Shown piece after piece: positions 34,450 to 55,940 of a DNA stretch of 64,000 bases. Source of the DNA: Octopus vulgaris. Its lineage: Eukaryota. The stretch lies in assembly GCA_951406725.2 (NCBI GenBank), contig OX597819.1, positions 92,132,001 to 92,196,000 of the forward strand, read 5' to 3'. Made by a program: the position numbers and the translations under genes. The stretch's first letter is position 1. Each line of letters starts with the position of its first letter. The notes under the pieces were generated by a model. That model saw only the letters and a list, made by a program, of their open reading frames with translations, made no database searches and was not told the origin of the DNA.

Positions 34450-34492
34450 TACTTTACCGGTTTCACTCTTTGGAAAAAGATTGTCAAAAGTA
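34450..34492 (-). ncRNA. Minimal hammerhead-like fold, variant core UUGACAA
   Basis: TACTT-TTGACAA-TCTTT-TTCC-AAAGA-GT-GAAAC-CG-GTA-AAGTA. Confidence 0.6.
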
Positions 34493-35019
34493 ACATGTAA
34501 AAGTTTGGTTGCGTTAATTATTGATTGTTGCAAATTGCTACATTACATATATACAGTCTTTGGTAACAGGGATATGTGAAGGACATAAAAATGTTCAACA
34601 AGTTCCTTAAAATATTGGGCACAAAAGATTACTACATAAATAATCGTTCACAAGGACATGCTTAAGATAGTTTCCAGAAGGAATTGACATTGGTATTGTA
34701 TCTGTATATTCAAACATGCACAGAATATTGGTTGACACAGAGTACTATAATCCATATAAATATACATTCTTTGGTGACAAGAGTATGTTGAGAATATAAA
34801 AAAGTTTAACAAGCTCATTGAAATAATGGGCACAAAAGATTACAACAAATATATTATACATCTCTAGATAATTTCCAGGAGGAATTATTAAAGGAATTAT
34901 TTTAAGGAACTTGTTGAACTTTTTTATGTCCGTAACATGTCCCTGTTACCAAAGACTGTATATATGTAATGTAGCAATTTGCAACAACCAATAATTAACG
35001 CAACCAAACTTCTACATGG

Positions 35020-35062
35020 TACTTTTGACAATCTTTTTCCAAAGAGTGAAACCGGTAAAGTA
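35020..35062 (+). ncRNA. Minimal hammerhead-like fold, variant core UUGACAA (second arm)
   Basis: Identical motif to 34450-34492 on the opposite strand. Confidence 0.6.
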
Positions 35063-37227
35063 AATAAACATCTTATAAATTGCATTTTCAAAACTTCTAT
35101 CGTATATATATATATATATATATATATATATATACATACATATATAGTACATCTGTGTGTGCGTGTATTGTGCATATGAGAGTGTATGTGTATTTTGGTT
35201 TGAGTGGATGCAGGTGTGGCTAGCAACTCGGATATGTCTGGGTATATATATAGGAGTGTGTGCGTGTTTGTGTGATTGCGTGTGCATTTGTATGATTTCT
35301 TTGAAAATAGTTGAAAATAGAACAGTTTTTCTCGTAATACGAAAAGAAAATTTAGGCAAAAAAAAAACAAAGAAAAGAAAAAAGAAGCAAAATGTGTCTT
35401 TATAAATTCCACTTAACAATTCCTTTTTAGATATATCTTTCTGGCCGTTCTTAATTCTTACGCTAGCAAGCTATACATTTTGTCATCTGTCTTTATCCCG
35501 ATACATGCGCATACATACATGTACACTAATACACTCGAGAAGCGTCTATATATCCATGCATATATATACACATGTATGTGCCAAAATACATGTATGCATA
35601 CATATATATATATATATATATATATATATATATACACAAACATATACATCTATATATATATATATATATATATATATATATATATAAACATACATATATA
35701 TTTATAGAAATATATATACACACACAAATATATATATATATACAAACATATATATACAATCATATATATATATATATATATATATATATATATATATACT
35801 CATGTTAAACTAATGCATGTGCATTTACAAATATATATATATATATATATATATATATATACAAACATATATATACAATCATATATATATATATATATAT
35901 ATATATACATGTTAAACTGATGCATGTGCATTTACACTTGTGCGTGTCTATAAACATCACCGCTGCCGCCACTATCTCTACCATCACAGCCCCCACCACT
36001 CTAATTCACTTCATCATTTACACACCCGTCCACCCATCACACCACCAGCACTGTTTGAAGTACGGGCAGCATTAACTGCGGCTCCCACCAATCATCCACC
36101 TACACCAGAACCAGCATACCCACCACCATTAACAGAATCCCAATCGCTACCTTCTAACATCCATCAAATGCCTTTGCTACCATATTGTTTGTAAGCAAAT
36201 TTCTTCATGATTTTAAATTAATCGCTAGCATTGGAAGACACATACAGATGGACGTATGAAGGTATATACATGTATATACATACATACATACATACATACA
36301 TACATATATATATATATATATATATATATATATATATATATATATATATATATATATATATATATATATATATATATATATATATATATATATATATATA
36401 TATATATATATATATATAAATATATATATTCATACATACATATATATATATATATATATATATATATATATATATATATATATATGTGTGTGTGTATATA
36501 TATATGCTTACATACATGTGCATGATAAATCTTACAAATTATTCTGCTTTCCAAAAGTACACACCACCTATAAACAACAACAATAAGAAAAAAAGCCAAA
36601 TGAAAAATTGATTTCTTTCATTTTATAATATTACAAAATTCCGATGAAGCCAGACGCGCTTGCATTTCCGATTGGATAATAAACATCTGCTTATATTACA
36701 ATTTGTAGAATTTGTGTTTTTCCCAGGACAGTGCCAAATCCATTTTAATATTATTCCAATTGTATTCGAAACAAGATTTTCTAAAAATTCAGTATCGAAG
36801 ATTTTAATACTTTCGTAGCTTGCTTTAGAAACATGCATGCATGCATGTATGTATTATGTAAGCATGTATGTATGCATGTATGTATGTATGTATGTATGTA
36901 TGTATGTATGTATGTATATATATGTATGTATGTATGTGTGTATGTATGTATGTATGTATGTATGTATAGATGGATAGATGATTGAACGTATCTATGTATG
37001 CATGTCTGTATTCATGTGTGTATGTGTGTGCTTATGTGTGAATGTCGGTGTGAATCCATGTGTATGTATGCGTGTATGTATGAGTGCAGGCTTTTGTGTG
37101 CATGCAGATGAGCATGTGTGTGTATGTGATCGTATGTGATTGCAATCAGAATGCAAATGTATATACTGCACATCTACACACGGCCATAGTTAACACGCAC
37201 ACGTAGACAGAAACAGACGGACAGATA

Positions 37228-37634
37228 TACTCTTACTCTTTTACTTGTTTCAGTCTTTTGACTGCGGCCATGATGGAGCACCGCCTTTAATCGAGCAACT
37301 CGACCCCGAGACTTATTCTTTTGTAAGCCCAATACTTATTTTATCGGTCTCTTTTGCCGAACCGTTAAGTAACGGGGACATAAACACACCAGCATAGGTT
37401 GTCAAGCAACGCTAGGGCGACAAACACAGACACACAAACACACACACGCATATATATATATATACATATATACGACGGGCTTCTTTCAGTTTCCGTCTAC
37501 CAAATCCACTCACAAGGCTTTAGTCGGCCGAGGCTATAGTAGAAGACACTTGCTCAAGGTGCCATGCAGTGGGACTGAACCAGAACCATGTGGTTGGTAA
37601 ACAAGCTACTTACCACACAGCCACTCCTGCGCCT
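37228..37634 (-). mobile_element. SINE family B copy
   Basis: Full-length reverse-complement match to 1189-1597. Confidence 0.9.
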
Positions 37635-38269
37635 GTATATATATTTATGTATGTAAATGTATGTATGTATGTATGTATGTATATATACATATACATATAT
37701 ATATATATATATATATATATATATATATATATGTGTGTGTGTGTGTATATATATATGTATGTATATGTATGTATATATATATACATACGTATATATATAT
37801 ATATATATATATATATATATATATATATATATATATATATATATATATATACATACATATAGATACATATATACACACACACACACACACACACACACAT
37901 ACACATATATATATATGAGAGAGAAAGAGTGAAAGGGAGAGAGAGAGAGAGAGAGTGAGAGAGATAAATAAGGGCATGTTCTCAAGTCGCAAATCCACAT
38001 CACATTGCAGATATCAGATTTTCTAATGGCGAAATCTCACAATATCAGAAATAGTGTTGCAACTAATGAATAGTTTCCACATAAATACAGACTGAAAAAC
38101 AAATACTGGCGGTTACATACAATCATACACACACACATACATACATACGTAATTACATACATACATACATACATACATACATACATACATACACACATAT
38201 TTATCTCGTTTAAGAACGTATGCGTCACAAAAAATATGCATTTCTATATTTTAAATAGAGTTGTTATAT

Positions 38270-38530
38270 TAATCGAAGTGCACTTATCATATATTCATTA
38301 CGGCCGATCTTACTAAACGGTTTTTACAAGAGTTCAACTGAGTGTTAGTCGGTAGGCCGATTATATAACCCTGCGCTCTTCGGAGATGACAACTATTGCA
38401 TAACTAGCGTCTCTGAAGAGCGTGTGGTCACATAATCAGGCTGTTGTCGAACACTCCGTTGAACCCCTTGTGCGAAACCAATTGGTAAGATAGGCCGTAA
38501 TGGTTATACAATACAGTAAATTTCGCTTTA
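38270..38530. mobile_element. Foldback MITE-like palindrome
   Basis: ATTACGGCCGATCTTAC / GTAAGATAGGCCGTAAT and CGCTCTTCGGAGATG / CGTCTCTGAAGAGCG pair symmetrically. Confidence 0.75.
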
Positions 38531-54595: not shown

Positions 54596-54652
54596 ATGTA
54601 TGTATGTATGTATGTATGTTTGTATCTATGTATGTATGTATGTATGTATGTA

Positions 54653-55000
54653 TACTCTTTTACTCTTTTGCTTGTTTCAGCCATTTGACTGCGGCCATGC
54701 TGGAGCACCGCCTTTAGTCGAGCAACTCGACCCGGGGACATAAACACACCAGCATCGGTTGTCGAGCGATGCTAGGGGGACAAACACAGACGCACAAGCA
54801 CACACGCACACACATATATATAAATATACATATATACAACTGGCTTCTTTCAGTTTCCGTCTACCAAATCCACTCACAAGGCTTTGATTGGCCCGAGGCT
54901 ATAGTAGAAGACACTTGCCCAAAGTGCCACGCAGTGGGACTGAACCCGGAACCATGTGGTTTGTAAGCAAGCTACTTACCACACAGCCACTCCTGCGCCT
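54653..55000 (-). mobile_element. SINE family B copy with internal deletion
   Basis: Tail and head present; the segment between CTCGACCCC and GGGGACAT is missing. Confidence 0.88.
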
Positions 55001-55326
55001 ATGTATGTATGTATGTATGTATCAATCTATCTATATATATATGTATATATATATATATATATATATTATATATATATATATGTATATATATATATATATA
55101 TATATATATATATATATATATATATATATATATATATATACATATTAATTATAATAAAGGGTTATTTGCAACAAGTTGCTCAAAACCACATACCAAAAAT
55201 ATTAGAAATAGCAGCCAGATAGGTCACTATTTCTACTACTAGTAAAAAAGTCTCCGCAAACAAACAATTTGTAACCCGTATATGGTAAAGAGAAAGAAAA
55301 CAACGAAATCCCGGCCTATTGGATTA

Positions 55327-55385
55327 ATTATGGACGAATTCGTTTCTGGATTAGAACCGAAGGTTCGTTTCCTTGTCAACATAAT
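55327..55385 (-). ncRNA. Hammerhead-like fold, variant core UUGACAA (unit 1)
   Basis: ATTATG-TTGACAA-GGA-AAC-GAACC-TTC-GGTTC-TAA-TCC-A-GAAAC-GAATTC-GTC-CATAAT. Confidence 0.65.
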
Positions 55386-55881
55386 ATTTCCTATAAATCT
55401 AGAAATGTTAGGAAAAAAAACTCACCCATTACATCAACTCGATCAGGTGACATCGAACGATATAACGGTCCGCTAGCATCTCCACATTTCTATAGACAGG
55501 CGAATTCGTATCTCCCTCCAAAATTAGCACATAAGTTACAAAAACATTACCAACGAAACGAAGTTTCGCAGATTCATTGTATGGGGGTAATAATATTCAA
55601 TACACATAAAGCGTGAAAAATAATTAATTTAATAAAATTAATAAATTTCACCTAGTAGTTTTTTCGGTATAGAAAAGACCATATTTGGTAAGGATTATAT
55701 TAATTATAATAAAGGGTTAATTGCAACAAGTTGCTCAAAACCATATACCGAAAATGTTAGAAATAGCAGCCAGATAGGTCACTATTTCTACTACTAGTAA
55801 AAAAGTCTCCGCAAACAAACAATTTGTAACCCGTATATGGTAAAGAGAAAGAAAACAACGAAATCCCAGCCTATTGGACTA

Positions 55882-55940
55882 ATTATGGACGAATTCGTTT
55901 CTGGATTAGAACCGAAGGTTCATTTCCTTGTCAACATAAT
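55882..55940 (-). ncRNA. Hammerhead-like fold, variant core UUGACAA (unit 2)
   Basis: Same fold 555 bp away. Confidence 0.65.

Follow-up and report, generated by a model that had tools for sequence, protein, structure and literature searches.

Candidate hammerhead motifs with a U3-A8 core in two Penelope-type repeat families of Octopus vulgaris

Introduction

Can a repeat that reads UUGACAA where the hammerhead core CUGANGA is expected still be counted among the hammerhead ribozymes, and what kind of mobile element would carry it? The question is raised by a stretch of 64,000 nucleotides (nt) from the genome of Octopus vulgaris (assembly GCA_951406725.2, contig OX597819.1, positions 92,132,001 to 92,196,000 of the forward strand), here called the window, in which a first-pass annotation made from the letters alone had pointed to four such motifs in two repeat families, A and B. 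C3-G8 is a core pair of the ribozyme, and U3-A8 has been described as a natural variant that is active in vitro (PMC3088659). We consider it likely that both motifs are type I hammerheads carrying this published U3-A8 swap and that both reside on Penelope-type repeats: the family A motif belongs to the terminal repeat of a Penelope-like element (PLE), that of family B probably to a retrozyme copied by PLE enzymes.

Four motifs in two repeat families

All four strings lie at the positions and on the strands given by the first-pass annotation, letter for letter as described. The pattern TTGACAA-N5..35-GAAAC matches the window four times where 0.24 ± 0.45 matches are expected, and none of 100 shuffles reached four or more. 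The motifs form two pairs of near-identical repeat copies and thus amount to two independent observations, not four. Stem I consists of five to six perfect pairs in each of them; the cleavage triplet is GUA in family A and GUC in family B, and stem III is built on CCGG in family A and on CGAAUUCG in the window copies of family B. That CUGANGA searches would miss such motifs had been anticipated, and a search of the window with this pattern indeed recovered none of the four; the Rfam hammerhead models miss them too.

The family A pair is inverted, 34404-34614 being 95% complementary to 34898-35108. On the minus strand, 34369-34897 is a 5'-truncated 3' end of a PLE, made up of pseudo-long terminal repeat (pseudo-LTR) and untranslated region, which ends in the longer of two 3' termini and adjoins (TA)n. 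Its candidate minimal type I hammerhead (34450-34492) has the core UUGACAA at 34487-34481, the stem II region with its U10.1·U11.1 closure at 34480-34465, GAAA at 34464-34461, the palindrome CCGG and the triplet GUA, with a predicted cut between 34455 and 34454. The plus-strand partner at 34898-35108 is an inverted copy of the terminal 211 nt, whose shorter 3' terminus adjoins (TA)n as well. It carries the second candidate minimal hammerhead (35020-35062; core 35025-35031, GAAA 35048-35051), with a predicted cut after 35057.

Family B is present as about 1.7 tandem units of a 555-nt repeat on the minus strand (55142-56080), retrozyme-like and with a rod-like predicted RNA fold. The direct repeat copies lie 555 bp apart, are 97% identical and hold one candidate type I hammerhead each. 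The one at 55327-55385 has the core UUGACAA at 55379-55373, a G10.1-C11.1 stem II, an extra A at 55347, GAAA at 55346-55343, a 3-bp stem III and the triplet GUC, with a predicted cut between 55333 and 55332; in the second tandem copy (55882-55940) the core lies at 55934-55928, the extra A at 55902 and the predicted cut between 55888 and 55887. An inverted terminal copy follows on the plus strand (56076-56198); it is 94% complementary to 55600-55722, has the longer of the two 3' termini and is succeeded by a TA-rich microsatellite.

U3-A8 as a family state

The genome, 2.8 Gb in extent, was searched with patterns that left positions 3, 7 and 8 free, and core states were read from the first 100 listed matches of each pattern. 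For family A there are 1,268 exact matches, and all 100 listed carry U3-A8 (97 as UUGACAA, 3 as UUGAUAA). Family B gives 136 matches, with 97 U3-A8, 2 U3-G8 and 1 C3-A8 among the 100 listed. Similarly, other motifs with a CCGG palindrome (133 matches, 5 for the control) show 92 U3-A8, 6 U3-G8, 1 C3-A8 and 1 C3-G8 in the 100 listed, and they cover at least three further U3-A8 families. The cores of these are UUGAUAA, UUGAGAA and UUGAAAA, and plain G10.1-C11.1 stems are present in two of the three. The mirror state is found in a family represented at window position 38692, where 90 of the 100 listed out of 3,589 exact matches are C3-G8 and none is U3-A8, the remainder being 6 C3-A8, 3 U3-G8 and 1 G3-G8. 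Taken together, families A, B and the CCGG set on one side and the mirror family on the other indicate that positions 3 and 8 switch together, with position 7 free.

Judged by the copies listed, U3-A8 is the consensus of both families and behaves as a compensatory state, as the first-pass annotation had proposed; the genome-wide check that it had called for shows that CUGANGA is the consensus of neither. Private mutations as the source of UUGACAA are rejected; U3-A8 is the family state in A and B alike. The core N3-U4-G5-A6-N7-N8-A9 allows a Watson-Crick 3-8 pair in both families. G12-A13-A14, A15.1-U16.1 and H17 are present as well, with GAAA in 63 and UC in 65 of 68 family B copies, and stem I closes. 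In the CUGACGA family the commonest slip of the core among the matches listed is from G8 to A. The C7 that families A and B have in common may reflect ancestry, chance or a route through CpG, the CpG step being speculation.

Family A at the ends of an intact Penelope-like element

Family A is the terminal repeat of a PLE that encodes reverse transcriptase (RT) and endonuclease. An RT fragment beside one family A copy gave 150 scored matches, many of them within long open frames, and in five of 15 regions fetched the motif flanks an intact frame of 776-846 codons on both sides and on the same strand. The intact units measure 5,806-5,830 bp between motifs and are 97.2-99.7% identical. Their protein matches RVT_1 in Pfam (E 6e-8), and pattern searches locate DKG, YLDD, a CxxxxCxxC linker and YVIRC..YIG near its C-terminus; a PDB sequence search with the RT frame returned nothing below E 0.79. 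The subfamily in the window has the triplet GUA where the intact subfamily has GUU, and it is found downstream of an 84-95% identical frame in locus L102.

Family A has two discrete 3' termini about 40 nt apart, and (TA)n follows 71 of 71 match ends (background 8.7%), a pattern which fits the tail and the target preference of PLEs. Partial tandems, an inverted 5' copy and a tail at one end, all expected of PLEs, occur in family A, and so does a minimal hammerhead in both terminal repeats on the coding strand. The first-pass annotation had described stem III as palindromic in both families: CCGG is found in 101 of 102 parsed family A rows (not de-duplicated) and the palindrome in both window copies of family B, whereas in family B at large only 12 of 68 copies are palindromic, which marks the palindrome as a feature of one subfamily. 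The family A core is constant across three subfamilies.

The intact element also has an upstream frame of 447 codons whose stop overlaps the RT start codon (1810-3153 and 3147-5423 in L098; also in L092, L097 and L100). It has no Pfam match, and its Atlas matches stay under 0.9, with weak mollusc-leaning leads only. According to a figure legend in PMC8557442, ORF1 is separated by a frameshift in some PLEs. Another PLE family, with an RT 39-47% identical to the family A protein, was seen in L174 (5672-5630, minus strand) and L118; its hammerhead-like motif, identical in both loci, has the core CCGAAGA (C for U4), closes stem II with U·U and carries the palindrome GUAC.

The two registers of stem II

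The first-pass annotation had counted one or two extra nucleotides before GAAAC in both families. For family A we aligned 21 of 31 rows together with three references, having excluded one spurious row, seven rows that varied in length and two that were second copies or additional. In the older subfamily, 28 of 30 genuine rows carry a G-to-A change. The register U·U, C-G, U-A, U·G/U-A, U-A, U-A survives this change, and the rival 5-bp register with two loose bases is broken in 13 of 19 distinct rows. The U·U-closed register is therefore the better supported one, and family A needs no extra bases before GAAA. Its junction has U·U in place of the usual G10.1-C11.1, and a stem II that starts with U10.1-U11.1 has been reported as a natural variant (PMC3088659).

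In family B the extra base stands: it precedes GAAA in 68 of 68 copies, is A in 66 of them and leaves the G10.1-C11.1 pair in place. Covariation, which the first-pass annotation had suggested as a check on the stems, is visible in the first stem I pair of this family, which is A-U in 51, G-C in 15 and otherwise in 2 of 68 distinct copies from 70 loci; it has no counterpart in family A. Stem III reads CG..CG in 54 of the 68 with a variable loop, and changes concentrate in loop 3. Across 39 distinct motifs 96.7% of cells are paired, a value matched by none of 500 shuffles, but the compensatory changes probably represent few subfamily events, so that shuffle counts overstate the support. The stem II register G-G-A/U-C-C is kept in 97.4% of cells.

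Family B as a probable retrozyme

From its sequence organization, family B is probably a retrozyme mobilized by PLEs. The unit of 555-560 nt (33% GC) matches no Pfam domain and no PLE protein, a 113-codon antisense frame likewise has no Pfam match, and comparison with family A DNA reveals no similarity (best E 0.65). The description of the two families as unrelated thus holds at the DNA level; it fails in that PLE-type insertion is common to both and at least three other families have the same core. Family B copies are met as partial tandems and inverted pairs, and in arrays the number of units rises to seven. Two 3' termini, separated by about 100 nt, are seen in this family, and (TA)n follows 62 of 75 match ends (not de-duplicated; background 8.7%). 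A young array of seven tandem units, 99%+ identical and followed by an inverted unit, was observed at 2865-7534 of L166 (G000:C2:84.29 Mb).

Unit folds of two subfamilies are predicted rods with z scores of -5.2 and -4.5, the opposite strand reaching -2.4. On the hammerhead strand G·U exceeds A·C by 19:4 and 19:6, for pairs taken from Watson-Crick-only folds; this excess points to selection on the family B RNA in the folds modelled, a count that relatedness and base composition weaken. Between the subfamilies 5 of 59 columns differ inside the motif and 86 of 508 outside it (about 17%), and the core is unchanged. As in retrozymes, the tandem units are non-coding, each holds a candidate type I hammerhead, and the unit RNA is predicted to be highly self-paired. 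A search for family B relatives that lack the extra A gave no signal (10 matches, against 19 when the reversed pattern served as control). In sequencing data, no run that contains the unit is registered as RNA. Contigs from four runs of a single study, whose RNA origin is a guess, span the unit and link its end to its start; tandem DNA would give the same junction, and contigs show neither ends nor strand.

A bolder proposal is that family B is an expressed circular retrozyme of 560 nt whose hammerhead cleaves as a monomer despite U3-A8 and the extra A between C11.1 and G12; we advance this tentatively, as the less probable outcome. If true, natural hammerheads would extend to forms with a tolerated insertion on the 3' side, which the descriptors in use overlook.

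A proposed mechanism and its competitors

In the mechanism that we propose, U3 would pair with A8 as C3 does with G8, and the catalytic core would be kept. The family A motif has no stable monomer stem III, and dimer cleavage is suggested for it: the cut would be made through CCGG, between two same-strand copies lying 5.8 kb apart in the precursor RNA of the intact element, and would probably be slow or protein-assisted. Dimer cleavage is summarized in PMC6765202. In family B the 3-bp stem III can form, and tandem transcripts would be cut into unit-length RNAs, which, following the model of PMC7229834, would circularize and be reverse-transcribed by the PLE enzyme into (TA)n sites. The copies in the window probably inserted passively; since the two of family A are on opposite strands, a single transcript could not bring them together to pair.

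Several observations weigh against this reading. Published PLE hammerheads cut weakly (PMC4209133), and one of them needed protein in order to cut and could be dispensed with in an in vitro insertion assay (PMC11167929). A scan of both motif regions with Rfam gave no hammerhead family at E ≤ 10, and the motifs, taken on their own, show no folding advantage over shuffled sequence (z 0.36 to -1.07). The family A protein shows no GIY-YIG domain in a Pfam search, and the favoured register of the family A hammerhead, a member of a young family, has no pair that changed on both sides. The monomer fold of this motif is calculated at +5.2 kcal/mol while the palindrome self-pairs at -8.3, which in these models is as expected of a dimer-type motif. 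The extra A that stands before G12 in family B departs from the consensus, the copies of this family had been picked by similarity or pattern, and in its minimum-energy folds the cleavage strand occupies G5-A6-C7 (inactive -10.5, active -9.6, a gap of 0.9 kcal/mol). The loci examined and the genome searches made yielded no coding partner that resembles family B in its DNA.

Part of this evidence suits a history in which the motifs descend from PLE hammerheads that lost cutting, so that decay, tolerated by the element, would account for U3-A8 and for the unusual junctions of stem II, or the fold would be no more than a signal for protein binding. The weak monomer folds and the off-consensus A of family B agree with it, as do the PLE hammerhead mutants without effect on insertion in vitro, the lack of RNA-seq ends at the cut site of that element (PMC11167929) and the spread of Naiad PLEs without canonical hammerheads (PMC8557442). 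Decay, however, hardly accounts for positions 3 and 8 switching jointly between families where position 7, H17, loop 2 and loop 3 vary freely, nor for a core that stays the same between family B subfamilies so far diverged outside the motif and across the three family A subfamilies; we regard it as quite improbable. Slightly better placed, though still unlikely, is the view that family B is not a retrozyme but a terminal repeat, duplicated in tandem, that belongs to a longer PLE with coding capacity. Its two termini, inverted end and (TA)n anatomy are those of family A, and the genome searches scored the best 40 candidates only. On the other hand, the family B loci examined have no common flank or linked PLE frame, the PLE beside family B in L174 is a separate neighbour insertion across a (TA)n tract, and strand-specific structure is conserved over whole units that reach arrays of seven.

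Two further ideas have very little in their favour. The first-pass annotation had itself allowed for a 6-nt core, UUGACA, and a shifted stem II, which would draw A9 into the helix. In family A this A9 could pair with the U before GAAA, but the same shift sets A against A in family B, where the register described above is nearly always kept; it is also at odds with the family A register of C-G next to U·U, which outlives the G-to-A change that its 5-bp rival does not, and families with plain G10.1-C11.1 stems have the same 7-nt core from U3 to A8-A9. We give it hardly any credence. Chance resemblance within AT-rich repeats is just as remote: only two independent motifs in the window, the silence of Rfam and the absent folding signal of isolated motifs speak for it, and it is contradicted for family A by intact PLEs that have the motif in each of their two terminal repeats and on the coding strand, the very site of published PLE hammerheads. 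Several families with different stems, moreover, have the core, GAAA, palindrome, NUH triplet and stem I in common. Type I hammerheads on Penelope-type repeats thus remain the reading that we prefer.

Other features of the window

The decayed 3' end of a third PLE family lies at 32031-32415 on the minus strand. It retains the C-terminus of an endonuclease (32415-32221, 49% identical to the end of the intact protein) and a hammerhead-like motif at 32062 with the core UUGAGGA (U3-G8; family state UUGAGAA), whose stem II pairs poorly. Copies of an abundant repeat that we take to be SINE-like (resembling short interspersed nuclear elements) adjoin families A and B at 34025-34175 and 54845-55000, each with a microsatellite end, and the PLE-type insertions of both families fell into these microsatellites.

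Two C3-G8 motifs accompany the families discussed above. One is a copy of the very abundant minimal hammerhead family in the mirror state (38665-38692, minus strand), with a stem I that has decayed here; the other, hammerhead-like motif (3466-3515, plus strand) has a long stem I and a weak stem II. A broken non-LTR retrotransposon occupies 46799-52470 of the plus strand, with a first frame and endonuclease-like and RT-like frames labelled by eye, and a related 3' fragment lies at about 45500-46022. The plus strand also holds a 248-codon fragment of a Tc1/mariner-like transposase (39393-40139, also labelled by eye). When the whole window was scanned with Rfam, only microsatellite-driven microRNA (miRNA) noise appeared among the 150 of 308 matches listed; a long inverted repeat with a (TA)n centre (25888-26143) is a source of such spurious miRNA-family matches.

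Comparison with known systems

The motifs are a new example of a known thing. The first-pass annotation had implied that U3-A8 was novel, but the variant has been in print since 2011 and 2014: it is reported from PLE hammerheads in PMC4209133, where Schistosoma gave about 1,300 hits and some motifs form pairs on opposite strands at distances of 100-700 bp, and two of the 56 examples in the alignment of that article are U3-A8, reading UUGAUAA and UUGAAAA. One entry there has an A before GAAA, so the family B junction may have a precedent. A literature search that covered few subscription papers found, to judge by titles and the opening lines of abstracts, no work on such motifs in the octopus group and none on an insertion between 11.1 and 12.

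Family A is most readily compared with the Cercyon elements of Schistosoma mansoni (PMC4209133). As in Cercyon, the motifs are type I with U3-A8 and a short palindromic stem III, occur in both terminal repeats and are met as opposite-strand pairs a few hundred bases apart in mostly truncated copies. In contrast to what the available text describes for Cercyon, U·U instead of G-C closes stem II in family A, the extra base that usually follows A9 is absent from it, the host element of family A has a Neptune/Nematis-type CxxxxCxxC linker, and family B has a 3-bp stem III and the extra A before G12. The variants of Perreault et al. 2011 (PMC3088659) include both the U3-A8 covariation and a U10.1-U11.1 start of stem II; the accessible parts of that paper report no single ribozyme with both features and no 11.1/12 insertion.

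The host of family A resembles Neptune/Nematis PLEs (PMC8557442) in its C-terminal GIY-YIG-type motif, CX2-5CxxC linker, DKG and (TA)n targets, and in partial tandems, an inverted 5' copy and a tail of about 40 nt at one end. It differs in the separate 447-codon frame that overlaps the RT start. The likeness is drawn from motifs and targets. Family B in turn shares with metazoan non-LTR retrozymes (PMC7229834; bioRxiv 10.64898/2026.07.22.740005) the non-coding tandem units with one type I hammerhead each, the low GC, a highly self-paired fold and the proposed mobilization by PLEs. Its unit is longer than the 150-450 bp given as typical in PMC7229834 and falls within the 51-972 bp of the bioRxiv study, which derives animal retrozymes from PLE terminal repeats. 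In contrast to those retrozymes, family B has a U3-A8 core with an extra A, and it is described here at the DNA level.

Against this background the octopus genome adds several PLE-type families with U3-A8 beside families with C3-G8, among them a young one with intact elements (97-99.7% identical). Such a set offers a convenient test of whether PLE hammerheads matter for transposition, and hammerhead descriptors must allow U3-A8, a U·U closure of stem II and an extra base on its 3' side.

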